A DNA stretch of 64,000 nucleotides from an uncultured Phycisphaerales bacterium (lineage in GTDB: Bacteria > Planctomycetota > Phycisphaerae > Tepidisphaerales > Tepidisphaeraceae). The stretch covers positions 9,843 through 73,842 of the forward strand of contig CAVZCA010000001.1 of assembly GCA_963773725.1 (NCBI GenBank). The letters run 5' to 3'. The notes below the pieces were generated by a model, which was not told the origin of the DNA, did not search any database, and saw nothing but the letters and a program-made list of their open reading frames with translations. Made by a program: the position numbers and the translations under genes. Positions 3,655 to 52,448 of this stretch are shown here, one piece after another (positions within the stretch are counted from its first letter, which is position 1; every line of letters begins with the position of its first letter).

Positions 3655-3762
3655 TCCATTACATTGCATCGTTGAAAATGCAAAGCTTCCCCAATCAGAA
3701 TTCAGTATTACCTTGCCCAACACTGCCGAGAGATGCTATCGTCTAATCAGGAGAAAATTGTT

Positions 3763-5183
3763 GTGATCAAAGTTGCAATGATCGGCGCCGGCAGCGTCGT
3801 TTTTTCCAAGAATCTGACCGGCGACATTCTCTCCTACCCCGAATTCAAGGACGCGACGCTCAGCTACATGGATATCGACGCCGACCGGCTGGAAGTCGGC
3901 GTCAACCTCTGCCGGAAGGTCGCCGACGCGCTCGGGGCCAATCCCGAAAATCGAAGGCAACCACGCGATCGCCGCGAGGCGCTGCGCGGCGCGGATTTCG
4001 TCATCAACATGGTGCAGATCGGCGGATTCGATTCCACGCTGGTCGATTTCGAAATCCCCCGCAAATACGGCCTGCAATTTCACCATCGCCGACACCACCG
4101 GCCCCGGCGGATTGTTCCGCGCGCTGCGCACCTATCCGATGCTCACCGGCCTTTGCCGCGACATGATGGAGCTCTGCCCGCGGGCCATCCTGCTGAATTA
4201 TTCCAACCCGATGAGCATGAACATGCAGACGATCTCCCGCACCAGCGACGTCCGCGCGGTCGGGCTGTGCCACAGCGTGCAGGGGACCTTCGATCAGCTG
4301 ATGGGATACATCGGCGAAAATCCGCGAAGACGTCGCGTTCATCTGCGCCGGCATCAATCACATGGCGTTCTACCTGAAGCTGGAAAAGGACGGCGTCGAT
4401 CTCTATCCCGCGGCTTTTCGAGGCGATGAACGACCCCGACATATTCGCGCACCAACGCGGTGCGATTCGAGCTGATGAAGCGGCTCGGCTATTTCGTCAC
4501 CGAAAGTCGCGAGCACAACGCCGAATACAACCCCTGTTTCATCCCGCACGGGCCGGAGATGATCGCGCGATTCGACGTGCCGATCGATGAATACCTCCGC
4601 CGCTGCGACGCGATCGTCGACGAATTCGAGCGGATGAAAAGCTTCAGCAAGATCGCGACGAGCCGATGGACGTCCATCGCAGCCACGAATACGGCAGCAC
4701 GATCATCCACTCGATGGTGACCGGCAAGCCGAGCGTGGTGTACGGCAACATGCCCAACCGCGGCGCGATCGCCAATCTGCCGGCCAACGCCATCGCCGAA
4801 GCGCCGACGCTGGTGGATCGCAACGGCCTGCAGTTCACGACCGTCGGCGAGCTTGCCGCCGCAGCTTGGTCGGCTACATGCAGCCGCACGTGACCCAGCA
4901 CGAACTGTTCATCCGCGCGGCGATGGAAGGCCGGCGCGATCACGTTTACCAGGCGGCGATGTTCGATCCGCTGACGGCCGCGATCTTGCCGCTCGATCAG
5001 ATCGTCGAGATGTGCGACGAGCTGATCGCCGCCCACGGCGATCTGCTGCCGAAATTCCCCGCCAAAACGCTGGTGCCCACCAGCGGCAAGCATTTCGAAT
5101 CAGCCGATATGAAAAAATATCGCCAGAGCTGGGAAAATGTGAAAACTGCGGCGAAGGCCACGGGAACGACAAAACTCTATTAA
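3763..5183 (+). CDS. melA: Glycoside hydrolase family 4 alpha-galactosidase-like enzyme (NAD/Mn-dependent), with at least 5 frame changes
   Basis: AGGAG followed by GTG at 3763. N-terminal Rossmann motif KVAMIGAGSVVFSKN, then LLNYSNPM, GLCHSVQGT and FVTESREHNAEY in ORF pieces 3733-4377, 4112-4429, 4460-4720, 4666-4893 and 4866-5183. Confidence 0.75.
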
Positions 5184-5325: not shown

Positions 5326-5785
5326 ATTTGGACGAACGTCTGCTGAAGTGCGGTATAACGAGATGCTAGGTCGGCGTAGATCTCTGATGAAATGTCGAAC
5401 CGGTTCCAATGTTCGATGACATATGCGCATGCAGAGGCGAGCGCTTGGCGATGGGTACAAGTTGTTTTGCCTCGTGTTGCAGGCGGAATTCAAGAAGCCC
5501 GGCAAAACAATCTATCATGCCCGAATCGTTCGCGGCGCAGTCGCTTTGTATGTAACGAATGGCTGCTTCGACGTAATAACGAAACGCCACGGGCCCCATC
5601 CACATCAAGTCTTCCTGGTAACGGGCTGAATTCTCACGAAAAAGCAACTCTGCTTCCTCACAGCTTTTACCTAGGAAATGTTCGCAGGCTGATCGCTCAT
5701 CCAGCGAGTCATAAACATTGATTTCATTGCAGGTGGGAATCAAACCGGGATTTTCCAAATGAATATTGGCCGACGACCATCGCAA
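5326..5785 (-). CDS. Hypothetical cytoplasmic protein with an immunity-protein-like look, in a lower-GC islet, with one frame change near 5430
   Basis: ORF 5366-5785 (…EDLMWMGPVAFRYYVEAAIRYIQSD…). It continues convincingly in another frame (QALASACAYVIEHWNRFDISSEIYADLASRYTALQQTFVQIGL, stop at 5326-5328). Confidence 0.4.
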
Positions 5786-5833: not shown

Positions 5834-6124
5834 TCACCGCCGGAAGTTGGAGCCACCCGCAATCGCAGGAATAATGCTCAGTTCATCCCCAGCCTTCACC
5901 GGCGTATCAAGGTTCTTCAAAAACCGAATATCCTCATCGTTCAGATAAACATTCACAAACCGATTCAGTTGATTCGGCCCCTTAAACAGCCGCGTTTCAA
6001 TGCCGCTGGCTTTGTCCTTCAGACCATTCAACACCTCGCCGACGGTGCCGCCGGCAACCTCCACGACATCGGCGCCCTGGGTGTAATTTCGCAGCGGAGA
6101 TGGGATTCGGACTTTAATGCTCAT
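5834..6124 (-). CDS. MoaD/ThiS-family ubiquitin-like sulfur carrier protein whose Gly-Gly is followed by a 5-residue tail (MetO/HcyS-like)
   Basis: 96 aa. The sequence ...VKAGDELSIIPAIAGG-SNFRR is typical of the ThiS/MoaD beta-grasp C-terminus. The start lies 7 nt after the stop of the ThrC-like gene. Confidence 0.75.
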   Translation of the reverse strand: MSIKVRIPSPLRNYTQGADVVEVAGGTVGEVLNGLKDKASGIETRLFKGPNQLNRFVNVYLNDEDIRFLKNLDTPVKAGDELSIIPAIAGGSNFRR

Positions 6125-6131
6125 GGTTGCA

Positions 6132-7425
6132 TCATATCACGGAAACAGGTTTTCGGGAGTCACGCTCCACTGGCTTCGCAACTGGCGGGATTTCTGCCTC
6201 CCGCCGAGCCAATAGTTCATCAAATTCGGAAAGCTTCGCCTCGATCACCTCCGGATGAACCAGATCATTCTGAACAGCTTCCAGCGTCTTCAGCCCGTTG
6301 CCGGTGATGCTGACGACGATCGATTCATTCTTGGGAATCCGCCCCTGCTGGATCAGCTTGATCGCGGCGGCCAGCGTGGTGCCGCCGGCGGGTTCGGTCC
6401 AGATGCCTTCGGTGCGGGCGAGCAGTTTGATCGCATCGACGATTCCGCGGTCGGTGGCGCTCTCGCCCCAGCCGCCGGATTCCTTGACCGCCTGCCAGAC
6501 GTAATACCCATCGGCCGGATTGCCGATGGCGATGCTCTTGGCGATCGTGTTCGGCTTCTGCGGCTCGATGATGTCGATGCCCTTGTGAATCGCCGTCACC
6601 ACCGGATTGCACCCGGCCGCCTGCGCGGAATAAATCTTCGGCTGATTGTCCTCGACCAGTCCCAGCTCGATGAACTCCTGATACGCCTTGTAAATCTTGG
6701 GCAGGATCGTCCCGCCGGCGGTGGGGACGACCGTGTGCTGCGGCAGCCGCCAGCCGAGTTGCTCGGCGATTTCAAAGCCGTAGGTCTTGGCCCCTTCGGT
6801 GTAATACGGCCGGAGATTCACGTTGACGATCGCCCAGCCGTATTTGTCGGCGATCTCGGTGCAGAGGCGATTGACATCATCATAGTTGCCGCGAATGCGA
6901 ACCATCGTCGGCCCGAAGATCAGGCAGCCAAGCACTTTTCCCTGCTCCAGATCGTGCGGAATCATCACGAAGCAGCGAAGCCCCGCCTGCGCGGCGTGGG
7001 CGGCGGTGCTGTTGGCGAGATTGCCCGTGCTGGCGCAGCCGACGGTGTCGAAGCCAAATTCAATGCGCCTTGCTGATGGCGACGGAAACGACGCGCTCTT
7101 TGTAGGAATAGGTCGGATAGTTGCACGAATCATCCTTGATCCAGAGATCGGAGCATCCCAGTTCCTTCCCCAGCCGTCGGCGCTTTTCAACGGCGTGAAG
7201 CCGGAGATGAATCCCGTTCGCGGCTCGGTCAACCGGCAGCAAATCCTTATACCGCCACAGGCTCTTGGGCCCCGCGGCGATCGACTCGCGCGTGACCTTC
7301 CCCTTCATCTTCGCGTAGTCGTACTCGACTTCGTACGGCCCGAAGCAGGCCTCGCACACATGCACCGGACACACCGGCACGCGATGCCCGCACTCTTTGC
7401 ATTTAAGACCAAGGACGTAGCTCAT
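6132..7425 (-). CDS. Threonine-synthase-like PLP enzyme with an N-terminal Cys4 zinc ribbon (MetM-like candidate), with one frame change near 7072
   Basis: N-terminal piece 7060-7425 carries CKECGH...CEAC and the PLP-lysine motif PTYSYKERVV. C-terminal piece 6132-7232 carries GCASTGNLANS, VVPTAGGT and EPAGGTTLAA. Confidence 0.8.
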
Positions 7426-7429
7426 GGGA

Positions 7430-7590
7430 TGATCCTCTTCCTGGATAAGAAGAGGCGCGGCAAGGCGGGCTTCTTCTTATCTGTCCCGGCAAAACCGGGC
7501 GGGAGTTAGCACCGTTTAATGGCAAAACGCCAGAAACGGTTGCTGTGGCTTCATCGGGCCCTACCCTCAGCCACTCTCGATAAGAATCTA
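7430..7590 (-). promoter_or_regulatory. SAM-I (S-box) riboswitch with an SD-sequestering expression platform
   Basis: The minus-strand RNA reads UUCUUAUCGAGAGUGGCUGAGGGUAGGGCCCGAUGAAGCCACAGCAACCG...CGGUGCUAACUCCCGCC...GGGACAGAUAAGAA. This matches the conserved S-box core, with the P1 helix between 7579-7586 and 7474-7481. The downstream CCUCUUCUU can pair with the GGAAGAGGA SD just before the ATG at 7425. Confidence 0.85.
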
Positions 7591-7606
7591 TTCAATTGTT
7601 GGAAAT

Positions 7607-7635
7607 ATTATTGATTACGCCCCGGAAAGTGTCAA
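7607..7635 (-). promoter_or_regulatory. Sigma70-like promoter for the riboswitch-controlled operon
   Basis: Minus strand reads TTGACA (7630-7635), a 17-nt spacer, then AATAAT (7607-7612), about 20 nt upstream of the riboswitch P1 helix. Confidence 0.5.
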
Positions 7636-7653
7636 GCGCGGCCAGAATACGGT

Positions 7654-8295
7654 TCAATCCGACTTTTGGGCCCGCCGAAGCACCGCATCAAACATCGCCG
7701 CCGTCAATTTCCCGGTAAACGTATTCTGCTGGCTCACATGATAAGACCCAAGCAGTCGCCGGCCTTCGTTCAATCGCATCTCCGCCCCATGACTAAACGG
7801 CACCTTGCCATCCGGAAAATCGCAACCCCGCCGCTTTGCCAGGGTGAGAATCGCATCCCACCCAATCTTCCCCAGCGCCAGCATGACCCGAACATCCCTC
7901 AGCAAATCCCATTCGCGATCCAGATACTCCGAGCAATTCGCGATCTCATCCGGCAGCGGCTTATTACCTGGCGGCGCACAGCGAACAGTTGCACTGATGT
8001 ACACACCATTAAGTTGTAAGCCATCATCTCGACGCGTCGAAGTCGGCTGATTCGCCATTCCCATTCGATGCAAAGCCGCGAAAAGAAAATCACCGCTCCG
8101 ATCCCCGGTAAAAACCCGTCCGGTGCGGTTGGCTCCATGGGCAGCCGGCGCAAGTCCAACAATCCAAATCCTCGCCCGCGGATCGCCAAACCCCGGAACA
8201 GGCTTTCCCCAGTAATCCCAATCCGAATACGCGCGCCGCTTTTCCCGCGCAACAGCCTCACAATAAGCGCGCAATCGCGCAGCGATTGCAGCCAA
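7654..8295 (-). CDS. Uracil-DNA glycosylase, family 4/5
   Basis: 213 aa and intact. Motifs IVGLAPAAHGANRTGRVFTGD and SYHVSQQN. Confidence 0.8.
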   Translation of the reverse strand: MAAIAARLRAYCEAVAREKRRAYSDWDYWGKPVPGFGDPRARIWIVGLAPAAHGANRTGRVFTGDRSGDFLFAALHRMGMANQPTSTRRDDGLQLNGVYISATVRCAPPGNKPLPDEIANCSEYLDREWDLLRDVRVMLALGKIGWDAILTLAKRRGCDFPDGKVPFSHGAEMRLNEGRRLLGSYHVSQQNTFTGKLTAAMFDAVLRRAQKSD

Positions 8296-8387
8296 CGACT
8301 TCCGACGACAAAACCCGAAGAGAATCTTTGGCGATTAATTTAGGCATCAGTTCAGCGTCCGCAGTCCCATTTTTTTTCTCTGCTGAT

Positions 8388-15522: not shown

Positions 15523-16027
15523 ATGCCGCAGTTCATTATTACAGCCGTCGGCCCCGATCGCCCCGGAATTGTGGGGGAACTGACCGCCCATCATTCATAG
15601 CGGCGGCGGAAATATTCTCGATTCGCGCATGGTGAACCTGCGCGGCGAGTTCGCGATGCTGATTCTGGTCGAAATGGCGGACGGAGCCAGCCTCCCCAAA
15701 GTCGGCGAGAAGATGGGCCTGCGACTCAGCGTTTCAGAATTGCACGGCAAACGCGCGGGAGTCAGTGGCCTGCCGTACCGCCTCAAGACCTATTCAATGG
15801 ATCAGCCGGGGATCGTGGCCAAATTGTCGCAGGTGCTTCGCGAATACGGAGTCAACATCGAAGAATTGTCAGCCCGCCAGGAATCAGCCCCATTTTCAGG
15901 TTCGCCACTCTTTCTGACTGAGATGCGATTGACCGTGCCGGCGTCGGTTTCGCTCGGAAAGTTGCGCGCGGAACTGGAATCGGTTGGCAACGCGCTCAAC
16001 TGCGATATTGATCTGGATCCCGCTTGA
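15523..16027 (+). CDS. ACT-domain pair protein (glycine cleavage system regulator GcvR-like), with a frame change near 15595
   Basis: [22 protein letters not shown] (ACT 1) from the ATG at 15523, then ORF 15629-16027 with [26 protein letters not shown] (ACT 2). Confidence 0.55.
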
Positions 16028-17216
16028 AGGTCAGCAATCCCAAACCCGTGAGGTTCGAACTCATTCGCCAGGATCGCGCCAGCAGCGCGGCTGGGTCGTG
16101 TTTCCACGCCACACGGAATTTTCGATACGCCCGCGTTCATGCCAGTGGGGACGCAAGGCTCGATCAAGGGGGTCTTGCCCGATCAGGTCGAGCAAACCGG
16201 ATCGCAGATCGTTCTTGGCCAACACGTATCACCTGATGCTTCGCCCCGGCGAAAAGACGGTCGCGGAACTAGGCGGCCTGCATCGTTTCATGGGATGGCC
16301 CGGGCCGATCCTGACCGACAGCGGGGGATTCCAGGTCTTTTCGCTTGCGGATTTGAACGAGGTCTCCGATGCCGGCGTGAAATTCAAAAGCCATATCGAT
16401 GGCAGCGAGGTCTTCCTCGATGCCAGGCGAAGCATCGAGGTGCAGAACGATCTGGGAGCGGACATCATCATGGCGTTCGATCAATGCCCGCCGGCAACAG
16501 CCCCGGTCGATGTGCATGCGCAGGCCGTCGAGCGAACCATCCGCTGGGCCGAGCAATGTCTGGCGGCACATGCACGGCCGGATGAACAGGGACTCTTCGG
16601 CATCGTTCAGGGCGGCGTCGATCTCGACCTTCGCGGCACGACTGCGCAACCGAGCTCTCAGCCATGGATTTCAGCGGTTATGCCCTCGGCGGCCTGGCGG
16701 TTGGCGAGGGATTTGAGGCGATGAAGACGGTCCTGCGCGAAATTGGCCCGATGCTGCCCGCGCGATAAGCCGCGGTATCTCATGGGCGTCGGGTTTCCGC
16801 GCGATATCGTCGCCGGCGTGGCGGCGGGGATCGATATGTTCGATTGCGTCCTCCCCACGCGCAACGGCCGCAATGCCTATGCCTTCACGGCTCAGGGCCC
16901 GATACGCCTGCGAAACAGCGTTCATCAGCGCGATAACGGCCCAATTGAGGCGGGTTGCGACTGTTACGCCTGCCGGAATTTCACCCGGGGGGCCATCCGG
17001 CACTTTTTTTTCGCGGGCGAGATGCTTGGCCCGGTGCTGGTTTCCGTGCATAATATGCGGTTCTACCAACGGCTGATGGCGGATATTCGCCGGTCGATCG
17101 GAGAGGGGAGTTTCGACTCCTTCGTGCGAAACGATGCGCGTTGCCAGCTCGGGCCCCGGCGCTGCCGCCGCCGAACCGGAAGATTGATGAACGCGGCTCG
17201 CTGGCGAGACCGCTGA
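16024..17216 (+). CDS. tgt: Queuine tRNA-ribosyltransferase (tRNA-guanine transglycosylase), with at least 4 frame changes
   Basis: Motifs [58 protein letters not shown] and CDCYAC spread over pieces 16024-16236, 16139-16585, 15984-16724 and 16743-17216. Confidence 0.85.
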
Positions 17217-17269
17217 ATGATAATCCTATAAGGAGAACTGCTTGAGCATTTTGCAATCTACTGGCCGAC

Positions 17270-17585
17270 GTGGCCCCCGCGACAACCCGTCCGACCGAGC
17301 CCGTTCCCTGGTATGCCAATCCGCAGCAGATGCTCGTGCTGCTGGTCTTCGGCGATGCTGATCTATCTGTTCTTCGGCTCCCAGAAGACCCGCAAAAAAG
17401 AGCAGCGGCAGCGGGAAGACATGCTGAACAACATGAAGCGGGGCGACAAGGTCGTGACCGCCGGCGGAATCCTCGGCACGATCGTCGATGTGCGCGACAC
17501 CGACGTGGTGCTGAAGGTGGACGAAAGCACCAACACCAAGATCAAGTTCACCCGCGACGCGATCAAGCGGGTGCTCGTCGAGTGA
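17270..17585 (+). CDS. yajC: Preprotein translocase subunit YajC, with a frame change near 17345
   Basis: ...QQMLVLLVF / AMLIYLFFGSQKTRKKEQRQREDMLNNMKRGDKVVTAGGILGTIVDV. Located directly upstream of secDF. Confidence 0.8.
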
Positions 17586-17665
17586 TGAATCGCCGTCCAC
17601 CGCCAAGTAAGAAGCGCCAAGTCAAGAGTTGTTCGTTTATCTGATCGGTTACGGATCATTCCATC

Positions 17666-20600
17666 ATGCCAACGACTTATTCGAAACCGGATCACGCTGA
17701 TTGCCACGGTGCTCGTGCTGTCGCTCCTGGCGATATTCTGGGGTCCGCCGTCGCGGCTGTTCGATCACAACCTCACCGCCATTCAGAAGACCGATCTCCG
17801 CCCCGGCATCGACATGGTCGGCGGCGTGAGCCTGGTCTATGCGATTCAGGCGGCCAGGCAATACCGATCCCGATCTTGTCCGAGCATGTAATGGAAGCCC
17901 TGAAAAAGCGCGTCGATCCGCTGGGGCTGCGAAACCTCGTCTGGCGTCCGCAGGGCAATGACCGCATCGAAATCGAAATGCCGCTGTCGTCGCGAGGCAA
18001 CCGAAGCCCCGCGCATCAAGCAGGCGTTTAACGAAGCGCAGCAGAAGCTGGATGCGACCAATGTCCGCCAGGACGAGGTCCTCAATGCGGTCGAGCATCT
18101 GACCGGCCCGCAGCGAGATCAGCGGCTTGCCGAGCTGGCGTCGGACGAGCAAGACCCGGGCGGACGCTCTTCAAGAATCTCTCGCAGACGTTCGACCAGA
18201 TCCAGGCAGCTCCGCGCGAATCCGCAAAAGCTGCCGCTGCCGATGCTGGCGGCGCAAGTTGCAGCCGCTGACGGTTGCGTATGACGACTTGAAATTGCAG
18301 ATCGATCAGACCAATCTGTCGCCGGCAGACCTTCAACCGATTCTCGACCAGGTCAATTCCGATGATCCGGACCAGAAAAAGGCCGGGCGACCAGAAGCTG
18401 GACGATCTGAAGAAAAAGTTCGCCGATTTCCCAACGCGGCTGAACGCGATGGACGAATTCCAGGCGAAATACAAGGATTACGATTCGGTCAAGAACGCGA
18501 TCACCGGCGCGGAAGATCTGAAGCGCCTGCTGCAAGGCTCGGGCGTTTTGGAATTCCACATTCTGGCGGACAACGTCACCGCCAATCCAGCGGATTTGAA
18601 GGCGATGGACGCGCGGCTGCAGCCGGGCGGGAAGGGGCCGCTGCCGCAGCCGGGCGACACGATCCGCTGGATGGAAGTGGATCGCCCGGAGGAATTCGAC
18701 AAGCCCGGCGAGCCGCCGGAAACGCACGAATGGAACGGCAAGCATTACATCCCGGTGCTGGTCGACGCCGGACGCCTCGATGACCAAGGCCAGAGCGGCA
18801 AATGGGGGCTGGAGAACGCGCGCGCCGCAGACCATGCAGGATGGCAGCCGGGCGGTCGGATTCAACTTCGACAACACCGGCGGAAATCTTTTCGGCGATC
18901 TCACCACGCACTGGTTCAACGTCGCCAAGCAGCACACGGATGTCGCCGACCCCCATTCGAAGCTGGCGATCGTGCTGGACAACAAGATCATCAGCGCCCC
19001 CAATCTCAATTACGGCGAATCACCGGCGGCTCGGGCGTCATCACCGGCGGCGGCAAGGGCGGATTCACCACGCAGGAACTCGAATTACCTGATCAACACA
19101 CTGAACGCCGGCAGCCTCCCGGCTCAGCTTTCCGATGAGCCGATCAGCGAGCAGCAGGTCGGTCCGACGCTGGGCGCCGACAATCTCTATCGCGGGCTGG
19201 TCGCCTGCGGCTTCGGCCTGATCGTCGTGGCGGTGTTTCTGATCAGCTATTACTACCTCGCGGGAGTGGTCGCGTTCTTCGCCGTGCTGATGAACCTCGT
19301 GCTGATTCTCGGCACGATGTGCGCCCTCAACGCGACGTTCACGCTGCCCAGCATCGCCGGCATCGTGCTGACCGATCGGCACGGCCGTGGACGCCAACGT
19401 GCTGATCTTCGAGCGTCTGCGCGAAGAGCAGCATCAAAATCTTCCGCTTGCGCATGGCCCTGCGCAACAGCTACGCCCAGGCGCAAAGCGCCATCATCGA
19501 CTCCAACATGACCAGCATCATCACCTCGCTCTGTCTCTACGCCTTCGGATCGGAAGAGGTGAAGGGATTCGGCCTGACGCTGATCATCGGCATCGTCGCC
19601 AGCTTGTTCACGGCGCTGTACGTCACCAAGACCATTTTCGGGATCATGATCGACAAGTTCGGCATGAAGCAGCCTCGGCAGCTTGCCGCTGACCTTCCCC
19701 GCATGGGATCGGCTGCTCAAGCCCAAATGGGACTGGATGGGCAAGGCGTGGATCTTCTACACCTTCAGCATCATCATGCTGGCGATCGGCATGACGCTGT
19801 TCGTCGATCAAGGTGAAGCAGGGGCGGATGATGGACATCGAATTCGCCACCGGGACATCGCTCCAGTTCCAGTTGAAGCAGCCGATGGATCAGGACGATG
19901 TGCGCAAGCTCATCGAAGCCGAAAGCCTGAAAGATCCGGTGGCGCTGCCCAGCCCCAAGCGTGGTGGCGGTGGGAACCGACCGGCTGCATTACCAGGTCG
20001 TCGTCGCCCAACGACAAACGAGAAATGGTGCGCAATGCCGTGCTCGAAGCGATGAATGGCAAGCTGCAGCTTCAGCTTCCATCGGAATTCGACAGGCGCG
20101 GAAGCGGATTATCAAAGATGCATCGGACAAAGAGGTGCTGCCGATTTCCAATCGATCGTTTGCGATTGACGGCTTACACCCCGCCCGCGGCTTCGAGCCA
20201 TCCCGGCGGAGTGGCGATCGTGCTGAAGAATATTTCCCCGCCGCTGTCGGTCGATGAAATCACCAAGCGGCTGGACAACCAGCGGCTGTCGAGTTCATCG
20301 GCGAACGACCGGGTCGGTGCAGTACACAGTTGAAGCTCCGGGCGATCCAAGCAAGCCAACCGCGTTTGCCGTCGTCGTCGGATGGAATCCGTCGGTCTCA
20401 TACGAAGCGGATCGGCAAATGGGACGGCGAGCTCGCCGAGCCGCTCTGGGGCCTGGTGAAGGACGCGGTGAATCATCCGCCATCATTCGAGCAGGAAACT
20501 AATTTCGATCCGCAGGTCGCCGGCGAAATGCAGCAGGATGCTTTCCTCGCGCTGGCCTTCTCGATCATCGCGATCATGATTTACATCTGGGTGCGGTTCG

Positions 20601-21116
20601 GCAATCTCAAATACGGTACCGCGACGGTCGTCGCGCTGCTGCACGACACGGTCTTCACCCTGGCGGCGCTCGGGCTTTGCCCATTACATCGCCGATTACT
20701 GGCCGCATAATTTCCTGCAGATCGAGCCGTTCCGCATCAACCTGACGGTGGTCGCCGGCATTTTGACGATCATGGGATATTCGATGATCGACACGATCGT
20801 GGTCTTCGACCGCATCCGCGAAAACCGCGGAAGGTATGGACATCTCGACCGGGCGGTGATCAACGACGCCATCAATCAGACCCTATCGCGCACGATGCTG
20901 ACGTGCGGAACCACGATCATGACCGTCTCGTTCATGTATTTCCTGGGCGGCGCCGGCATCCACGGCTTTACATTCGTGCTGCTCATTGGCATATTGGTGG
21001 GAACGTATTCGTCGGTGGCAATCGCGGCTCCGCTGCTTTTGTGGGGCAAGGACGAAAAGCGGCCCACCGGCGTGATGCAGGCGCCCGTCGGGCAAGTTCC
21101 ACGGGCAAGCGTTTAA
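17666..21116 (+). CDS. secDF: Fused protein-export membrane protein SecDF, with at least 12 frame changes
   Basis: A chain of colinear plus-strand pieces: GIDMVGGVSLVY, LGLRNLVWRPQGNDRIEIEMP, the large periplasmic domain 18362-19138, GPTLGADNL...AVFLISYYYLAG, DANVLIFERLREE, then the SecF part FDPQVAGEMQQDAF...MIYIWVRF and GYSMIDTIVVFDRIREN. Confidence 0.85.
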
Positions 21117-22982: not shown

Positions 22983-24479
22983 TCATTGCGCATCACGCGC
23001 CCGCTCGATCCGGCGGCACGCGCTGATCACCGTGCTGTGATTCCGTTTTCCCATGCGCATCCCGATCTCCGGAAAGCTCAGCTTCGCCGTTTTCCGCACG
23101 AGATACATCGCCACGCTGCGGGCGAGGCTGATCGTTCGCTGGCGCCGGCCGGACATCAGGTCTTTATGTTCGAGTCCGAAATAATCGCAGACCGACTGGA
23201 GAATATTGTCCGGCCGAACCGGTGCGACCATCTGCCGGTCGAGATCGCCGAGCGATTCCTGGGCCATCACGACATCCGGAATCCGGCCGGTGAGTTTGAC
23301 ATGCGCGGCGATCCGCGTGATCGCCCCTTCAAGCTCGCGCACGTTCTGCGTCACCCGCCGAGCGATCCAGCCGACCACTTCCTCCGGCAAATTCAATCCG
23401 CCGCGGTGCGACAGGCTGCGCAGAATCTCGCATCGCGTCGCGAAATTCGGCGGATCGATCCGCACCACCATCCCGCTGACAAAGCGATTGACCAGCGATT
23501 CGCCGAATTCCTCGATCATTTTCGGATGATTGTCGCTGGCCATCACAACCTGCCGGCCCATGGCTTCGATCGCGTTGAAGGTATGCAGGAATTCTTCCTG
23601 CGTCGCCTTCTTGCCGCCGAGGAAATGCACATCGTCGATCACGAGCAGATCGAGATCGCGCATTTTCCTGCGGAAGTTATCGAGCTTGTTCGATCGTAAA
23701 GCGGTAAGAAATTCGTTGGTGAATTCCTCGCCGGTGAGATAGGTCCAGCGCTTGGTCGGGTGATGGGCAATAAATCGCCTGCAAAGTCCCTGGAGCAGAT
23801 GGGTTTTGCCCAGGCCGCAGCCGCCATGAATGAACAGAGGGTTGTATTGGGCAGCCGGGAAATTCGGCGACGTCAGAGGCGCGGTGTTGTACGCGAGTTG
23901 ATTGCTCTGCCCGACGACGAATGTATCGATATCGTGCCGAAGGCGCGGCTTATTGGATTGCGCGGCCTGCTGATCCTCCGCCGCGGAAGTCGGGCGGCGC
24001 GGGCTCATGACCGGCATGACCTTGCAGATCGTCTCGCTGGCCGCGGCGGCGGCGCGGGTTTCAGCAGCAATAGCGGCCCGGGTTTCTGACGGCTGCGCGG
24101 CCGGCGTGGAAGAAAGAATGGGCGAGCCGAGCAGGGGGGCCCCGATGGGTCGCGCCGACGCTTTCGCGCCATCCGCCGCCGGTTTGTCCGAAGCGCCGTC
24201 GGTGGTATTCACCTCAAATAGCTGCGGCACGACGCTGAATCTCACCGCGAGCGAGCAGCCCAGAACTTCATGGGCTGCATCCTGAATCGGCTTGCTGAAG
24301 TGCGAACCGATCCACTCGCTGATGAAATCGTTGGGGACGGCTATTTCCAGCCCGTCCTGCCTCAGATCGAGGCGCGTGGAATTATTAAACCAAACATGAA
24401 ACCGTTGTTGTCCTACCCGTTGAGCGATTGCGTTGGCCAATCGTGCCAACTGCGGATCGTGTGCGCCGATGCAGCTCAC
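22983..24479 (-). CDS. dnaA: Chromosomal replication initiator protein DnaA
   Basis: Intact. Motifs YNPLFIHGGCGLGKTHLLQ (Walker A), LLVIDDVHFL and the C-terminal DNA-binding RQRTISLARSVAMYLVRK...GKRNHSTV. The frame stays open up to 24647, but a GTG at 24477-24479 gives a typical 498-aa DnaA. Confidence 0.9.
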   Translation of the reverse strand: MSCIGAHDPQLARLANAIAQRVGQQRFHVWFNNSTRLDLRQDGLEIAVPNDFISEWIGSHFSKPIQDAAHEVLGCSLAVRFSVVPQLFEVNTTDGASDKPAADGAKASARPIGAPLLGSPILSSTPAAQPSETRAAIAAETRAAAAASETICKVMPVMSPRRPTSAAEDQQAAQSNKPRLRHDIDTFVVGQSNQLAYNTAPLTSPNFPAAQYNPLFIHGGCGLGKTHLLQGLCRRFIAHHPTKRWTYLTGEEFTNEFLTALRSNKLDNFRRKMRDLDLLVIDDVHFLGGKKATQEEFLHTFNAIEAMGRQVVMASDNHPKMIEEFGESLVNRFVSGMVVRIDPPNFATRCEILRSLSHRGGLNLPEEVVGWIARRVTQNVRELEGAITRIAAHVKLTGRIPDVVMAQESLGDLDRQMVAPVRPDNILQSVCDYFGLEHKDLMSGRRQRTISLARSVAMYLVRKTAKLSFPEIGMRMGKRNHSTVISACRRIERARDAQ

Positions 24480-24908
24480 GCCGACTCCTTCCGTGCAAAA
24501 CCGTATGTCCCGACCCGACGGTTCGCAAAAGCCACCAGACCGGGTCGGCTGGCCACCACAGGAACAACTCAAGGAAACAAAACCCTGTGCCGTCCTACGG
24601 CGCCGTCCGATACGCCCTGCCACTGGCAAAGCGCAGCATTCCCTCATCCTTGGCCGGCGTCCTGCCTTAACCTGGGAAAAACCAAACCTTAAAAATCATC
24701 CGTGAAGTGGCGGAGAAAATAGTCTGCGTTAACAGTACTGGCAAGTAAAACTTTATCGGATTTTCCGTTCACAACGATCAAAACATCGGTAGGGCCGGTG
24801 CGGTTTGTTTAGGAAATCTTTTTTTCAACTTTCGATCCACCGTATTATCGGACTGTGCACAACTGGTGCACAAAATGGGGAAATATTTCGTTCTTCCCGG
24901 CAGGATCA

Positions 24909-26900: not shown

Positions 26901-26999
26901 GATTTATAAGAAAACGTCGTGCAAGCCGACGGCTTCATGTTTATAATAAATAACGAGAAGTAAGACGGAATGCCTTTCGGATCATCCGGGAGTTTCAAT

Positions 27000-27224
27000 A
27001 TGCAGATCGTTCACCTGAAAGTGCAGGGCCAGATCGAATCTAATGGACATCTGCATCTGGATGTGCAGACCCAGTTGCCCGCGGGAGAGGCCAACGTGGT
27101 CCTCACCATCAGTTCAAGCAACGAACCAAAAAATAATGGGCGCAATTTTTCCGATCTTGCGGGTCGGCTAGTCTGGCGTGGCGATCCGGTTGCTGAGCAG
27201 CGGAGGGTTCGCAATGAATGGTAG
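27000..27224 (+). CDS. Antitoxin of the VapBC-type module
   Basis: Small ORF (MQIVHLKVQGQ...) ending ...GDPVAEQRRVRNEW, a tail common in PIN-partner antitoxins. Its stop overlaps the vapC start by 11 nt. Confidence 0.5.
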   Translation: MQIVHLKVQGQIESNGHLHLDVQTQLPAGEANVVLTISSSNEPKNNGRNFSDLAGRLVWRGDPVAEQRRVRNEW

Positions 27225-27591
27225 GCGCCTGCTGCTTGATACGAATGCAATCATTGCTTTGCTTCAGGGCAATCAACAGGTGCTGGAACTCACATCCTCG
27301 ATCGATTGGATCGGCATATCAATTATTAGCCACATTGAATTCCTTTGTTTTTCGGGGCTGACCCAGTCAGACCGTGATCTGTTCGCTCAATTTCTTAACA
27401 GGGTTGAGATCATCGGGCTTCATTCCGGGGAACAACAGCTAATTGAACGGGCGGTTGAAATCCGGCGGTCATTTCGCGTTAAGCTCCCCGATGCAATCGT
27501 TGCGGCATCTGCACTGAGCCATGACGCCATTCTTGTCACCGCGGATCGGCAGTTGTCATCCATTAAAGATCTTTCCGTTCTCTTGTTTTAA
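27214..27591 (+). CDS. vapC: PIN-domain ribonuclease toxin VapC
   Basis: MNGRRLLLDTNAIIALL (first acidic residue), ...ISIISHIEF..., ...KLPDAIVAASAL...ILVTADRQL (PIN acidic residues). Confidence 0.8.
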   Translation: MNGRRLLLDTNAIIALLQGNQQVLELTSSIDWIGISIISHIEFLCFSGLTQSDRDLFAQFLNRVEIIGLHSGEQQLIERAVEIRRSFRVKLPDAIVAASALSHDAILVTADRQLSSIKDLSVLLF

Positions 27592-28662
<1,071 letters not shown>

Positions 28663-35284: not shown

Positions 35285-35320
35285 ATCCACCGATCGGCGG
35301 ACCCAGGCGGAACGTAAACT

Positions 35321-36578
35321 ATGGCCAGAGTAGAACTCGAAAAAGTCAGCAAAATCTATCCCGGCGGCGTTCAGAGCCGTCGATGCCATCGATCTGCACA
35401 TCGCCGATCGGGAATTCGTCGTCCTCGTCGGCCCGTCCGGCTGCGGCAAGACGCACCACCCTGCGCATGGTCGCCGGGCTCGAGGAAATCTCCGAGGGAA
35501 TCATCAGGATCGGCGAGCGCAGTCGTCAATGATGTCCCGCCCAAAGACCGCGACATCGCGATGGTCTTCCAGAATTATGCCCTTTATCCGCACATGACGG
35601 TCTACAAGAACATGGCCTTCGGCCTGAAGCTCCGCGGGATGCCCAAGGCGGAAATCAATAAGCGGGTCGGCGAAGCGGCCAAGATTCTGGAAATCGAACA
35701 TCTGCTGGATCGCAAGCCCAAGCAGCTCTCCGGCGGCCAGCGCCAGCGCGTGGCGGTGGGGCGGGCCATCGTCCGCGAGCCGGCGGCGTTTCTGTTCGAC
35801 GAGCCGCTCTCCAATCTCGATGCCAAGCTGCGCGTGACCACCCGGGCCGAGCTCAAGCGGCTTCATCAGCGGCTACGCACCACAACGATTTACGTCACCC
35901 ACGACCAGGAAGAGGCGATGACCCTCGGCGACCGGATCGTGGTGATGAAAGATGGCGTCATTCAGCAGGCCGATACGCCGCTGCAGACCTATAATCATCC
36001 GGCCAACCGGTTCGTGGCCGGTTTTATCGGAATGCCGCCGATGAATTTCTTTGACGGGACCATCCGCAACGCCGGCGGCCAGATGATCTTCGAGGAAGGC
36101 AAACTGAAGGGTTCTTCGAGGCAGACCGCGTCGGTTGTTGGCAACGGAAAGCCGTATGAAGCGCCTCTGATGATGGCCGGCGAGTTGACCTTGCCCGGCA
36201 ATGGGTTTACGCTTTCGCTGGACCAGTTGTCCTCGGGAGCGAAGGATCGCCTCGCCGCGCGCGTCGGAACGCATGTGGTTCTGGGCATTCGCCCGGAGCA
36301 TTTGCATCTGCGTCCGGTGGAAGGATCGGTGGCCGATCAAGGTCCGATTGAACGTGATCGAGCCGCTGGGAAGTGATATGGATGTTTATATGAGCACCGC
36401 CTTGCACGATCATGTGGTTGGGCGACTGGAAGCCCAGGTCGGCGTGCAGGTCGGGGCGGAGGCGACGATGTACGTCGATATTCGGAGAGCTCACGTTTTC
36501 GAACCCGGAGAGACCGGGATGAACCTGAGCCTGGAGACATCGTCTCCCGCCAACGAGCCGACCCATGCACTTGCATAA
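35321..36578 (+). CDS. Sugar ABC transporter ATP-binding protein (MalK/UgpC/MsmX type), with about 4 frame changes
   Basis: [11 protein letters not shown] (Walker A), [14 protein letters not shown] (signature), [11 protein letters not shown] (Walker B), YVTHDQ, and a C-terminal MalK-like regulatory domain in 36201-36578. Confidence 0.85.
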
Positions 36579-36775: not shown

Positions 36776-38297
36776 ATGAATTCGCAGGAACTGATCCGAA
36801 TCGTGGACGGCATCGCCCGGGACAAAAACATCGAGCGCGACCAGATCTACACCGACATCGAACAGGCCGTCGCTTCCGGTCTGCGCAAGCAGTTCAACAC
36901 CGAAGACACCAGCGAATTCACCGTCAAGCTGGACCGCGCCACCGGCGAAATCACCGCGGCCCGACAGGGCGTGGAAGTTCCGCTTTCAGTCGTCGGCCGC
37001 ATCGGCGCACAGACCGTCAAGCAGGTCATGATCCAGCTCATCCGCCAGGACGAGCGCGGCAGCATCTACGAGGAATACAAGGACCGCGTCGGCACCATCA
37101 TCACCGGCACCATCGCCCGCTTCGAAGGCGGCACGATGATCGTCACCCTCCTGCGAAACATCGAAGGAATCATGCCGCGCAGCGAGCAGATCCCCGGCGA
37201 AGTCCACCAGGTCGGCGAGCGCGTGCAGGCGCCTGATCATGGAAGTGCGCGACACGCCCAGCGCCGTGAAGATCATCCTCAGCCGCAGCCATCCGGAACT
37301 GATCCGCCGCCTGTTCGAGCGCGAAGTTCCCGAAGTCGGCGAGCGGACGATCGAAATCAAGGCCCTGGCCCGCGAGCCGGGCCATCGCACCAAGATCGCC
37401 GTCAGCTCCATCGACTCCAAGGTCGATGCGGTCGGCGCCTGCGTCGGCGTGCGCGGCAGCCGAATCAAGAACATCGTCGACGAACTCGGCGGCGAGAAGA
37501 TCGACATCGTCCGCTGGAACGAATCGAGCCAGATTCTGATCGGCAACGCCCTGAAGCCCGCGGAAGTGGCGGAAGTCGCCCTCTGCTTCGAGCTGGGCCG
37601 CGCAACCGTCGTGGTCAATGAAGATCAGCTTTCGCCTGGCCATCGGCAAGCGCGGCCAAAACGTCCGCCTCGCCGCCCGCCTGACCGGCTGGGACATCGA
37701 CATCCTCACGCCGCCCGAATTCCAGAACGGCGTGCAGCGCGCTCGATTCGACGCTCAAGAGCATCGAGGGAATCACCCAGGAGATGGTCGACAAGGTCAT
37801 CGCCCTGGGCCTGATCGACGTGCGCGATCATCGAAGAAGTCGGCACCGGGCCGCTGATGGAAGAACTTGGCACTCGACGAAGCGACCGCCCAGAAGGTCG
37901 TCGAGCAATGCGCCGCCGAGGCGAAGATCGTCGCGGTCGAGCAGGAAGCGAAGAAAATCGCCGATGCATCCGCCAAGGCCGCCGTGGCCGCAAGTCAGCG
38001 CTGCCGACAAAGCGGCCCTGCTCGGCTCTTGGCGACTCGCGCCGCGCCGGCCGAGGAAAAAATGCCCGGCGCTCTGGAATCCGCCGCCGGCGGAGCCCCG
38101 GAAGTCATCGTTCACGCGGACACCATCACGGCCGGCGAAGGCGAAGAGCTAAGTCGCCGAGGAACAGGCGATCCACGGCATCGGCGAAACAGGCGATGTC
38201 GCCGCCGGAAAGCTCTGCACCGCTGGATGAAGAAGATGATGAGACGGCAGCACTGGCCGAAGGACGCGAAGCGCCTCCCGTCGGAAGATCCCAATAA
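36776..38297 (+). CDS. nusA: Transcription termination/antitermination factor NusA, with at least 4 frame changes and an uncertain C-terminal end
   Basis: [23 protein letters not shown]1 domain [16 protein letters not shown] domains [26 protein letters not shown] and [23 protein letters not shown]. Confidence 0.9.
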
Positions 38298-38330
38298 ACT
38301 GTAAGCAAGCGATATCGAGTTCGAGATTTT

Positions 38331-41259
38331 TTGGAGATTGTTTTGGCAAAAGGCATTCGAGTCAACATGTTGGCCAAGGAACTTGGCGTCGAGAGCAAGG
38401 CGATCCTCCAGAAGCTGAAGGGAGAGGGCCTTAGCGACGCCGCTCCCAACCACATGAGCACCTTATCGCTCGGACTGGCCGAGTCGGTGCGCGAATGGTT
38501 CAGCAGCGGCCAACTCGGCGGCGGCGGCACGGCCGTCGAAACCGCGCCGCACGTTGAAGTAGCCAAAACCAAAGCCGCGCCGCGGCAAGAAGAAAGAGGA
38601 AGATGCCGCGCCGCCCGAAGCCGAGATCGAAGAAGAAGCCAAAGCGCCGGTCCCGTCCATTCCCGTGCCGGTTGCCGCCGCCAGCTCCTGCCGGTGCGCG
38701 AAGCCGAGCCGGAGATCGAAACACCTGTCGCGCCGAAGCGCCGCCGGTAGCCAAAGTTTCAGTTGCTCCAGCAGCCGCCTCCCGCTGCACCGCCAGCGGC
38801 GAAGCGCCGCCCGCGCATGTGGAGGTCGCAGTTCCTCCGCCAGCAGTGGAGCCACCGCCGGCGCCACCCGCGCGCCCCGATCGCTCCGCCACCAGCGATG
38901 AAGCCCGCGGCATCAGTTCCGCCGCCAGGCCCTGCCGCGCTCCGCAGCCGCCGGCTCGCCTGGAGTCGAACACATTCGCCCGACGCGCCCGACAGTCACG
39001 CTCGCCAGCCGCGCCGCGGCCCATCAGCCGCCGATCGCAAGCCAGTCGTGCAGGCGCCGCAGCTGACATCGCTTCAACCCGCGAAGATCCAGGGTCCGCG
39101 CGTCGTCCGCATCGAAAAAGAAGAAGCGGTCGTGCAGCCGCGGCCCGCGTCCGCAGCGCGTCCCGCCGCCACCGATTCCCCCGACGTCACCACTCCCGCC
39201 GGCCCGCGCACCGGTCGCGGCGTGAAGGCGACCGACGAGGATGATGAAGAAACAAAGAAGAAAGCCGCCAAGAAAGGGGCCAGCCTTTCCAGCCGCCGCC
39301 GGGGCGTCGATGGCCGCCGCGGCGAAGCGATGGAAAAGCTCAAGGAATTCACCGATGCCGACCTGATCGCCCGCCGCGATGCCCTCAACGCCGCCGCCAC
39401 GTCTCGAAACGTATTCGATAATCACCTTCGCCAGATCGAAAGGCGCGGCACGCACACCCAGGCCAAGACCGATCGTCCAGCGCGGCGAGCCGGTCGCGAT
39501 CGAAGAGCCGATCACCGTTCGCTCCCTCTCCGCGGCCCTGGGCATCAAGACCAACGACATCATCAGCAAGCTGATGAAGCAGCGGCATCTTCGCCACCAT
39601 CAATCAGACCCTCGATCAGGACACCGCCGAAACGCTCGCCCTGGAATTCGGCATCGAACTGCAACATCGCCCAGCAGGCGACGCTGGAAGAAGTCCTGGT
39701 CGGCGAGATCGAAGCGCGCGAGCAGGATCCCGACCAATCTTCAGTTGCGGCCCGCCGGTGGTCACGATCCTCGGCCACGTCGACCACGGCAAGACATCCC
39801 TGCTCGACAAGATCCGCAACGCCAACGTCGCCGCCGGCGAAGCCGGCGGCATCACCCAGCACACCGCCGCCTGGATGGTCGCAACTCGGCCGCCAAGCGC
39901 GTCACCTTCATCGACACGCCCGGCCACCAGGCCTTCACCGCCATGCGCGCCCGCGGCGCGAACATGACCGATGTCGTCGTGCTGGTCGTCTCCGCCGCCG
40001 AAGGCGTTCAGCCGCAGACGATCGAATCGATCAATCACGCCAGGGCCGCCGGCGTGCCGATCGTCGTGGCGATGAACAAGATCGACCGCGCCGATGCCAA
40101 CCCGGACATGGTGCTCGGCCAGCTCGCCAAGGAAGGCCTCAACCCCGTCGAATGGGGCGGCGACACCGAAGTCATCCGCACCAGCGCCACCACCGGCCAG
40201 GGCATTCCGGAACTGATCGAAATCCTCGATCTCCAAAGCCAGATCATGGAACTCAAGGCCGACCCGACCGCCCCGGCGCGCGGCACCGTCATCGAAAGCC
40301 AGATGAACGAAGGCCTCGGCCCTGTCGCCACCGTGCTGGTGCAGGATGGCACGCTGCAAGTCGGCGATATCGGTCTGGCCGGCTCCGGCTTCGGCCGCAT
40401 CCGCAGCCTCCTCAACGACCGCGGCGAGATGATTCCAGAGGCCGGCCCCAGCACGCCGGTCATCGTCAGCGGCCTCAGCGCACTGCCCCAGGCCGGCGAC
40501 AAATTCTACGTGCTGGACGACATGGATCGCGCCCGCGCCATCGCCGAAGAACGCGAATCTCGCCAGCGCCAGACCAGCCTGGCCGGCGCCGAGCCGCGTC
40601 ACCCTCGACAATCTCTTCGACACCATGAAGGCCGAGGAGATCAAGACCATCAACCTGATCATCAAGGGCGACGTGCAGGGCTCCGTCGAAACGCTGGCCA
40701 AGACCGTCACCGATGCCAACACCGACGAAGTGCGCGTCCGCGTGATTCACAGCGCGCGTCGGCGCGATCAACGAAAGCGACGTGGAGCTGGCCGACGCCT
40801 CCAAGGCGGTCATCATCGGCTTCCACGTCGTTCCCGACGAAGCCGCCCGCGCGATGGCCGAGCAGCGCCGCGTCGAAATCCGCCTCTATCGCGTCATCTA
40901 CGAAATCTTCGACGATCTGAAGAAGGCGCTGTCCGGCATGCTCGAGCCGGAAATCCGCGAAAAACTGCACGGCCACGCCGAAGTCCGCAAGGTGTTCAAG
41001 GTTTCCAAGATCGGCAACATCGCCGGCTGCTTCGTCACCGACGGCCACATTCAGCGCGGCAGCAAGATCCGCCTCATCCGCGGCGGCGTCGTCATCACCG
41101 AGGACCTGACCATCGAATCGCTCAAGCGGCTGAAGGACGACGTCAAGGAAGTCAAGGCCGGCTTCGAATGCGGCATCAAGGTCGGCCGGGTACGACGACA
41201 TCAAGGTCGGCGATATTCTGGAAGCCTATATCCGCGAGACGTTCCAGCGAACGCTGTAA
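38331..41259 (+). CDS. infB: Translation initiation factor IF-2, with at least 9 frame changes
   Basis: N-terminal [21 protein letters not shown], a Pro/Ala/Arg-rich linker, G domain [29 protein letters not shown], then domain C2 ...[10 protein letters not shown]...ILEAY. The 39.9-40.6 kb part is intact in one frame. Confidence 0.9.
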
Positions 41260-41279
41260 TTACGCTCGTTCGATTATCC

Positions 41280-41561
41280 ATGACGATCGGCGTATTGCAA
41301 ATGGAGATTTCGATCACCGACGCGATGTCCCTGAAGGACAAGCGCCGGGTGGTCAAGAGCCTCAAGGACCGCATCGCCCACGGGCACAATGTCTCCATCG
41401 CCGAGGTCGGCGCGCTGGACGAGCATCGCCGATCGATCCTCGGCATGGCGATGGTCAGCAACGACGGCCAATATGTCGAAGGGGCCCTGAGCAAGCTGGT
41501 CGATTTCGTGCGGACCGTGCCGCAGGTGACTTTGATGGATTATCAGATTGAATTGTTGTGA
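41280..41561 (+). CDS. DUF503-family protein (commonly between infB and rbfA)
   Basis: [32 protein letters not shown]... Confidence 0.7.
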
Positions 41562-51956: not shown

Positions 51957-52406
51957 CTATTTTGTGAAAGCCGGCGAACCCTGCTGACGTTTTACTTGTG
52001 TTACAGAACATCGAGCTACTAGAACGTGTGAAACCTGCCTCCTTTTTAATGCGATTTTTGAGAAGTCCGCTACAAGTTGAAGGGGGGGCAGCTTCATTAT
52101 TTCTTGACCTTTGCCGTTCAGAATTTCTAGGGAGGCTCCCGGCCCCACAATGATGCTTCCAATCTTCGCGACCTTTTCGCGCTCACCCAGACCTAATCGC
52201 CGGCCACGCCCGCAGAAGGTCTTCCCTTCAAAGAGATGAACCCAAGAATCACCTCTTATAATCCGGAGTCGCATGAGACCTCTCCATGGCGTGCCGCGGT
52301 AAAGGTAGCGGTCGCTGTCCCTATAACGACGAAAGTCCGTCGGTGTATCGCATGGAAGCAAAATATTTACGCAATCGAATCGCTCTAGCGGTAAATCGAT
52401 CGACAT
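51957..52406 (-). CDS. Hypothetical protein downstream of the kinase
   Basis: 149-aa ORF, same strand, 42 nt after the kinase stop. WVHLFEGKTFCGRGRRLGLGE...IGSIIVGPG is faintly beta/gamma-crystallin-like. No firm motif. Confidence 0.3.
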   Translation of the reverse strand: MSIDLPLERFDCVNILLPCDTPTDFRRYRDSDRYLYRGTPWRGLMRLRIIRGDSWVHLFEGKTFCGRGRRLGLGEREKVAKIGSIIVGPGASLEILNGKGQEIMKLPPLQLVADFSKIALKRRQVSHVLVARCSVTQVKRQQGSPAFTK

Positions 52407-52448
52407 TAGTGACTTAAGGAAATTGATTCGAGGGCGATGGAGACGTGT

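Follow-up and report, generated by a model that had tools for sequence, protein, structure and literature searches.

The 64,000-nucleotide (nt) stretch of DNA analysed here, called the window in what follows, comes from an uncultured bacterium of the Tepidisphaeraceae (Planctomycetota). Between positions 7635 and 5834 its minus strand carries a promoter-like site, an S-adenosylmethionine (SAM) riboswitch of the SAM-I (S-box) class, a gene for a pyridoxal 5'-phosphate (PLP) enzyme of the threonine synthase (ThrC) fold and a gene for a small sulfur-carrier protein. The two genes resemble metM and metO of a homocysteine pathway described in Streptomyces albulus, and the locus is probably a metM-metO operon repressed by SAM. 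A sequence-only reading of the same DNA had proposed this kind of assignment, and its claims are taken up below where the results bear on them.

The riboswitch and the two genes

A scan of the whole 64 kb with Rfam gave no match other than the SAM-I model RF00162, which aligned over its full length (model positions 1-108 of 108) to 7474-7586 on the minus strand, at a score of 86.7 bits, which exceeds the gathering score of 44.4, and an E-value of 3.6e-19. The sequence-only reading had placed an S-box aptamer at the same coordinates, and this placement passes the covariance model. Helix P1 is formed by 7586-7579 paired with 7481-7474. The aptamer was aligned with 26 others, 25 of them from related MetM-like loci in other genomes (denoted by L numbers below). 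In this alignment of 27 aptamers, which was itself fitted to the covariance model, 96% of the cells are paired and compensatory changes on both sides were found at 20 of the 32 pairs; none of 500 shuffles reached the observed pairing and covariation values, and slid controls were 42-54% paired. The structure is a covarying four-helix junction that shows nothing unusual for SAM-I. Judged from its sequence, the leader RNA at 7474-7586 folds as a SAM-I aptamer, and binding of SAM is predicted.

The aptamer is preceded by the sigma-70-like promoter (7607-7635, minus strand) that had been pointed out before, with the -35 hexamer TTGACA at 7635-7630, a 17-nt spacer and the -10 hexamer AATAAT at 7612-7607. 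It agrees with the consensus at 11 of 12 positions in a consensus scan, and both hexamers are kept in the closest relative, L002. By itself the match carries little weight, since shuffles yield 0.9 such sites.

Constrained folds of the expression platform (7433-7473, minus strand) gave two states. With P1 enforced, the anti-Shine-Dalgarno arm CCUCUUCUU (7455-7447) forms a 9-bp hairpin with AGGAAGAGG (7442-7434) that covers the Shine-Dalgarno (SD) sequence GGAAGAGGA (7441-7433), the end of which lies 7 nt ahead of the AUG at 7425. With P1 open, its 3' strand GAUAAGAAGA (7481-7472) takes UCUUCUUAUC (7453-7444) as its partner, which frees the SD. In the predicted folds the segment 7455-7444 therefore has two mutually exclusive partners, the SD or the P1 3' strand, and the anti-SD/SD pairing suggested by the sequence-only reading is recovered. 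No intrinsic terminator or U-run was found 3' of the aptamer by sequence scan and folding. As predicted from these folds, the platform is a standard translational OFF switch. The unconstrained minimum-free-energy fold, in which the P1 5' strand pairs with the SD region, was set aside as an artefact because the P1 5' strand and the anti-SD segment share sequence.

The platform of L002 has the same architecture as that of the window. Most other relatives carry, 3' of the SAM-I aptamer, a hairpin followed by a U-run instead of the SD hairpin, that is, a transcriptional rather than a translational platform (L003-L008, L014, L016, L018, L019, L024, L027, L031, L040 and L078). The hairpin of the window and L002 shares its CCUCUUCUUA 5' arm with the terminators of the relatives, lacks the U-run and uses the SD as its 3' arm, so that the expression platform appears to have changed within the Tepidisphaeraceae.

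The metM-like gene extends from 7425 to 6132 on the minus strand and has 430 codons after the correction of three frameshifts that are treated below. Its corrected product matches the Pfam PALP family (8e-68), with the PLP lysine K109 (7099-7101) invariant in the alignment of its clade, and has an N-terminal Cys4 ribbon (CxxC...CxxC, 7345-7401). The ribbon is an addition to the fold, since solved ThrC proteins align only from residue 55 onward, so that the earlier description of a ThrC-fold PLP enzyme with an extra Cys4 ribbon is accurate. As a diagnostic of MetM the ribbon was ruled out, because the ThrC-like proteins P0228 and P0264, which have canonical motifs, and other zinc-ribbon groups also carry one. 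A match to Pfam NinF just below threshold (26.8 bits, cut-off 27.5) reflects zinc-ribbon similarity only.

The metO-like gene (6124-5834, minus strand) starts 7 nt past the stop of the enzyme gene, as had been noted before, and encodes a 96-amino-acid (aa) protein of the ThiS/MoaD/CysO fold (Pfam ThiS, 1.3e-14). Among solved structures the protein is closest to 4n6e_B (E 2e-21) and Mycobacterium tuberculosis CysO, 3dwg_C (E 1e-19), both aligned over their full length. The protein ends in ...AIAGG-SNFRR, with the diglycine at 5852-5857 and the tail SNFRR at 5837-5851, followed by the stop codon. The tail was ruled out as an indel artefact, because the difference from L002, which ends in Gly-Gly plus Val, is an in-frame stretch of 12 nt and because short tails are common: 17 of 71 MetO homologues have 1-8 aa after the Gly-Gly. 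A 139-aa open reading frame (ORF) farther downstream (5366-5785, minus strand) was excluded from the system, since it has no Pfam match and no homologue in related loci.

The enzyme clade and its neighbours in other genomes

An exhaustive search identified 12,003 relatives of the enzyme among cluster representatives. Close homologues, with 84-92% identity and uninterrupted proteins of about 430 aa, come from the Tepidisphaeraceae (Phycisphaerae, Planctomycetota), in agreement with the planctomycete host that had been proposed. We aligned 63 full-length representatives with two canonical ThrC sequences. The window enzyme displays the motifs STGNLAN, NVNLRPYYTEGAKT, SIAIGNPADG and TEPAGG, and the signatures STGNL(A/G)N, N(V/I)NLRPYY(A/T)EG(A/S)KT, S(I/L)AIGNPADG and TE(P/T)AGG are common to all representatives with at least about 40% identity. 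Canonical ThrC proteins (2zsj, 6cgq) have STGNTSA, NSVNPYR(I/L)EGQKT, IGNPxSW and EPASAA in their place, and none of these occurs in the window enzyme. Identity to these two structures is 37-38%, compared with 41-92% inside the clade. The clade signatures were also found in the actinomycetes Nonomuraea, Actinoplanes and Micromonosporaceae and in cyanobacteria; a homology search from a Micromonosporaceae representative retrieved Micromonosporaceae only. The PLP motif of the window enzyme is SYKER, where SFKDR or SYKDR is commoner. The comparison with ThrC places the enzyme outside the canonical family, and by these sequence signatures it is a member of a distinct, widespread clade apart from canonical ThrC.

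Annotation resources group the enzyme differently. Its best solved relatives are the canonical ThrC structures 2zsj, 6cgq, 1uim and 2d1f, and the corrected protein lies above the cut-offs of two NCBIfam threonine synthase models, NF006050 (304.5 bits, cut-off 303) and TIGR00260 (266.6 bits, cut-off 167.1). Evidently, neither of these equivalog models distinguishes MetM from ThrC.

To survey the genomic context, the pattern R[PS][YF]YxEG[AS]KT was scanned over 185,579 species genomes, which gave at least 600 matching stretches; the best 80 of these, together with two loci from exact-protein look-ups, make up the 82 related loci considered here. The best 80 belong to Planctomycetota, Binataceae, Deltaproteobacteria, Rokubacteria, Methylomirabilota, Brocadiaceae, Sumerlaeota, Acidobacteriota, Nitrospirota, Aquificaceae, Chloroflexota and Actinomycetota, and about 45 of them to cyanobacteria, including Microcystis. 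In 71-73 of the 82 loci the enzyme gene is followed on its own strand by a MetO-like gene, usually within 20-400 nt. With a covariance model built from three aptamers, 25 of the 82 loci were found to have SAM-I ahead of the enzyme gene in the same orientation; these 25 come from seven or more phyla, and no cyanobacterial locus is among them. The latter result agrees with the Microcystis gene, which is reported to lack the riboswitch (PMC12172450). An Rfam scan of 18 related loci without SAM-I found no other riboswitch class upstream, and four riboswitch-less loci have an Rrf2 regulator upstream.

Two actinomycetes also have the riboswitch ahead of a clade gene. In Actinoplanes derwentensis the SAM-I aptamer ends 6 nt ahead of the clade gene, and on the chromosome of Nonomuraea gerenzanensis a SAM-I aptamer (L085, 7839-7988) is followed by a MetM-like and then a MetO-like gene. 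The Nonomuraea MetM-like protein is 50% identical to that of the window and has all the signatures, and the MetO-like proteins are 47% identical. The same chromosome encodes a canonical thrC, with a product 56% identical to Bacillus subtilis ThrC, 9 Mb from this locus, which indicates that the clade enzyme is not the housekeeping threonine synthase in that genome. The record of this 11.85-Mb chromosome (NZ_LT559118.1) describes it as 'plasmid I' and has 10 annotated features.

These data bear on the view that the window enzyme is an ordinary threonine synthase and that the neighbouring carrier has no connection with it, being, for instance, a molybdopterin MoaD. The scores of the two NCBIfam models and the ThrC identity of all the best PDB relatives speak for this view, as does some ThrC-type activity of a Microcystis clade member in vitro (PMC12172450). 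It leaves unexplained, however, why control is by SAM-I and not by a threonine-responsive element, here and at 27 or more other loci, why the active-site motifs are altered across the clade, and why a carrier that is CysO-like rather than MoaD-like adjoins the enzyme gene across phyla. The separate thrC of Nonomuraea also speaks against it, and the authors of the GapMind preprint describe MetM as 'often misannotated' as threonine synthase (10.1101/2024.10.14.618325). We consider an ordinary threonine synthase very unlikely.

Genes of aspartate-derived amino acid synthesis were found in the operons of some Acidobacteriota: two loci have homoserine dehydrogenase between SAM-I and metM, and two others have aspartate kinase right behind metM. 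These homoserine dehydrogenase and aspartate kinase ORFs (L022, 4164-5243; L051, 5114-5989; L024, 7209-8513; L031, 7251-8495) occur in loci that have no adjacent carrier gene. The operons are relevant to whether the pair in the window makes cysteine, in the manner of CysM/CysO acting on O-phosphoserine, or another thio-amino acid instead of homocysteine. Cysteine genes are sometimes under SAM riboswitch control, the nearest solved relatives of the carrier are the CysO proteins 3dwg_C and 4n6e_B, and a CysK-like PALP enzyme is encoded as well at L052, one of the related loci. Yet the window enzyme is far nearer to ThrC, with its substrate O-phosphohomoserine, than to the CysK/CysM family, the riboswitch operons just described point to homoserine, and the characterised member of the family yields homocysteine. 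Cysteine or another thio-amino acid as the product is thus very unlikely.

Candidate partners of the carrier are encoded at several related loci. ORF clustering combined with Pfam counted Prok-JAB genes at seven loci, TusA at four and NIR_SIR sulfite-reductase-like genes at three, and a ThiF-type E1 gene lies directly 3' of MetO in L030 and L052. At L068, from an Actinomycetota metagenome-assembled genome, one polypeptide (7235-8299) consists of a ThiS domain, Gly-Gly and a ThiF E1 domain, and the locus also holds JAMM, TusA and NIR_SIR genes. In several phyla MetO is fused past the Gly-Gly to a NIL domain (PF09383; L013, L017, L019, L023, L026, L030 and L052). Loci with a NIL or E1 fusion coincide with the seven that have a Prok-JAB gene, except for L026, the contig of which is too short to tell. 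Close Tepidisphaeraceae have a free NIL protein of 85-90 aa right after MetO (L003, 9720-9974; L004, 3500-3769; L006, 9639-9974); no NIL-domain protein was found in the 64-kb window. Additionally, eleven cyanobacterial loci (L032, L036, L039, L043, L046, L054, L059, L064, L065, L067 and L070) contain, besides the downstream MetO-like gene, a second ThiS/MoaD-family gene of about 88 aa with a Gly-Gly end, which lies 0.2-1.7 kb ahead of the MetM-like gene.

Frameshifts in metM and the rest of the window

In the list of ORFs metM appears as two pieces, 7425-7060 (121 aa, with a TGA at its end) and 7232-6132 (366 aa). Three-frame translation and tblastn with intact 430-aa homologues revealed a path through frames 0, 1, 0 and 1: frame 0 up to ...LLPVD, frame 1 for EPRTGFISGFTPLKSAD, frame 0 for RLGKELGCSDLWIKDDSCNYPTYSYKERVVSVAISKA and frame 1 from IEFGFDTVGCASTGN until the stop at 6132. 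Nucleotide alignment with L002, which is 83.9% identical at the DNA level, showed an extra base near 7228, a missing base at about 7175-7189 and another extra base near 7066. The three indels fall within about 170 nt and are accompanied by a premature TGA at 7060-7062; three 1-nt edits give back the 430-codon ORF. The single enzyme gene of the sequence-only reading is therefore right in fold and position, but it is split by three 1-nt indels that had gone unreported.

Similar breaks occur elsewhere in the window, all on the plus strand. A GH4 glycosidase gene (3733-5183) is spread over at least four frames, tgt (15584-17213) is split and has an in-frame stop at 16722-16724, and secD/secF (17232-21113) is in at least three fragments. 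In obg (27639-28526) the N-terminal domain is out of frame, and the Obg domain shares the frame of the GTPase domain over its last 37 positions only. The Walker-A region of a MalK-like ABC (ATP-binding cassette) ATPase gene (35318-36373) is unreadable, and infB (37685-41558) is in at least three fragments, with the GTP_EFTU and IF-2 domains each partly in frame on separate fragments. The genes dnaA (554 aa), lpd (468 aa) and hisG of the same window are intact, and this mixture of broken and intact genes suggests patchy indel errors in the assembly.

Alternatively, metM might be a genuine, recently inactivated pseudogene, in which case the homocysteine route would be lost and the riboswitch and metO would be relics. 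Three frame-breaking indels and a premature TGA so close together are what such a gene would show, and over the 5.9 kb for which a comparison with L002 is possible, no other coding indel breaks the frame. However, the indispensable genes infB, secD/F and obg are broken in the same way; every frame segment of metM still encodes conserved sequence; the ratio of nonsynonymous to synonymous substitution rates (dN/dS) of the corrected gene is 0.06-0.11 against three relatives and is also low in the affected stretch; and the riboswitch, promoter, SD and metO are all intact. A pseudogene is unlikely on this evidence. Given the intact homologues, the low dN/dS and the breaks in infB, secDF and obg, we infer, short of proof, that the metM indels are most likely sequencing or assembly errors. 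Such frameshifts would lead gene callers to miss or truncate the MetM-like enzyme.

Other features of the window lie far from the operon. The intact dnaA (22983-24647, minus strand), with DnaA_N, Bac_DnaA and Bac_DnaA_C domains, indicates that the window may be close to the chromosomal replication origin. A gene for a PIN-domain protein (27172-27588, plus strand) with a small ORF just upstream (26970-27224) resembles a toxin-antitoxin pair. A DDE_Tnp_1 transposase gene (50620-51303, minus strand) is followed by a region from 52000 to 64000 with a third-position GC bias of about 0.53, against about 0.72 elsewhere. Encoded in this region are a Ser/Thr kinase fused to an FGE-sulfatase (formylglycine-generating enzyme) domain (52449-54527), an extracytoplasmic function (ECF) sigma factor (54520-55137) and a DUF1573 protein, besides several ORFs without Pfam match. 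The region may have been acquired horizontally.

Proposed homocysteine synthesis under SAM control and known systems

The preferred interpretation is that the locus, in a bacterium of the Tepidisphaeraceae (Planctomycetota), is a metM-metO operon for homocysteine synthesis that SAM represses. We give this family-based assignment a probability of roughly 80%. The motifs of the clade, the adjacency of carrier and riboswitch among the related loci and the layout in Nonomuraea all support the thiocarboxylate route under SAM feedback that the sequence-only reading had put forward.

In the proposed mechanism, transcription would start at the sigma-70-like promoter and the leader would fold into the SAM-I aptamer. 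With SAM bound, P1 would form, the anti-SD arm would pair with the SD, as in the first of the two folded states, and translation of metM would be blocked; metO would probably be blocked too, as its start so close behind metM makes translational coupling possible. At low SAM the P1 3' strand would capture the anti-SD segment and leave the SD free. The MetM-like protein, a PLP enzyme derived from threonine synthase, is expected from its family and the published pathway to take O-phospho-L-homoserine, eliminate phosphate and attach the sulfur of the MetO thiocarboxylate to the gamma carbon, rather than water to the beta carbon, to give homocysteine. By analogy with CysM/CysO, the first product may be a MetO-homocysteine adduct. 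Before this reaction MetO would have to shed the five residues past its Gly-Gly, by a protease of the JAMM/Mec type acting in trans. A ThiF/MoeZ-type E1 with its gene at another place in the genome would next adenylate and sulfurate the trimmed protein. Translation of metM would be shut off by SAM, which is formed two steps past homocysteine as the end product.

Several observations weigh against this interpretation. The assignment of the window enzyme to MetM depends on transitive similarity and shared architecture: the MetM-like and MetO-like proteins of the window are 56% and 44% identical to those of the Microcystis locus L081, and the Microcystis homologues are in turn 51.6% (MetM) and 47% (MetO) identical to those of Streptomyces (PMC12172450). 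The Microcystis member itself had ThrC-type and deaminase-type activity in vitro and was judged not fully MetM in cells (PMC12172450). All publicly annotated homologues are labelled threonine synthase, in line with the NCBIfam equivalog scores given above, and in some members of the clade, among them L001, Actinoplanes and several Acidobacteriota, no carrier gene adjoins the enzyme gene. As assembled, metM gives no full-length enzyme. Finally, the 64-kb window contains no E1 or JAMM gene according to its Pfam inventory, and a six-frame tblastn of the window with E1, JAMM, TusA, NIL and CysK-like queries from related loci reached a best E-value of only 0.26. The sequence-only reading had already remarked on this absence, which implies that both E1 and protease must act in trans.

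A more far-reaching proposal, which we regard as doubtful, is that in the Tepidisphaeraceae MetM/MetO is the sole homocysteine route, with no MetX/MetY or MetB, served by an unlinked E1 and an unlinked tail-trimming protease; that the Cys4 ribbon docks the carrier; and that the lineage of the window and L002 recently converted an ancestral terminator hairpin into the SD-sequestering one.

With the metM-metO assignment, the locus is an example in a new phylum of a known pathway, which was described in 2024 and is already included in GapMind; for the window itself we judge the assignment correct yet unsurprising. The route was described from one genus, and the 82 related loci put the enzyme-carrier pair in many phyla. 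For many uncultured lineages, correct naming of these 'threonine synthase' homologues alters metabolic reconstructions, for instance of sulfur flow and methionine prototrophy, and the SAM-I riboswitch provides an independent, RNA-level marker of a methionine role.

The nearest known system is the MetM/MetO thiocarboxylate pathway of S. albulus (Hasebe et al. 2024, Appl Environ Microbiol 90:e01247-24), as cited in 10.1101/2024.10.14.618325 and PMC12172450. The sequence-only reading had mentioned such a pairing of a ThrC homologue with a sulfur carrier in Streptomyces, and these sources describe it. They name MoeZ (E1) and Mec (JAMM hydrolase) as partners of the carrier (10.1101/2024.10.14.618325, PMC12172450) and place a SAM riboswitch upstream of metM (PMC12172450). 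Both systems encode a ThrC-homologous PLP enzyme together with a ThiS/MoaD-type carrier, have the riboswitch ahead of metM and have an enzyme named threonine synthase by annotation pipelines. The window differs in its host, a member of the Tepidisphaeraceae, and in that E1 and JAMM genes are unlinked to the operon within 64 kb. Its riboswitch is translational, acting by SD sequestration, unlike the terminators of most relatives, and its PLP motif is SYKER.

In the CysM/CysO system, a protein thiocarboxylate donates sulfur to a fold-type-II PLP enzyme that acts on an O-phospho amino acid. The M. tuberculosis CysM/CysO/MoeZ/Mec+ system (3dwg) shares this sulfur-transfer logic with the clade described here, and it resembles it further in the full-length similarity of the window carrier to CysO and in the JAMM and E1 partners seen in related loci. 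The window enzyme is ThrC-like, however, with O-phosphohomoserine as the expected substrate and homocysteine as the expected product, and is placed under SAM riboswitch control.

Homocysteine is also made through a carrier thiocarboxylate by HcyS/HcyF/HcyD/MetY of Wolinella succinogenes (Krishnamoorthy and Begley 2011, as cited in PMC5764234). This system likewise has a ThiS-like carrier with a C-terminal extension that a metalloprotease must remove; the enzyme there is an O-acetylhomoserine sulfhydrylase of the MetY type and fold type I, whereas the enzyme here would be a ThrC-derived one that uses O-phosphohomoserine.

Canonical ThrC (2zsj, 6cgq, 1uim, 2d1f) shares with the window enzyme the fold, the PLP lysine and probably the substrate O-phosphohomoserine, at 37-38% identity. 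The active sites differ in three motifs, which read STGNL-AN, NLRPYYxEG(A/S)KT and IGNPADG in the window clade and STGNT-SA, SVNPYRxEGQKT and IGNPxSW in ThrC. The solved ThrC structures have no N-terminal Cys4 ribbon, while some ThrC-like groups with canonical motifs do. Control also differs, as the window gene is under SAM control and not under the threonine-related kind.

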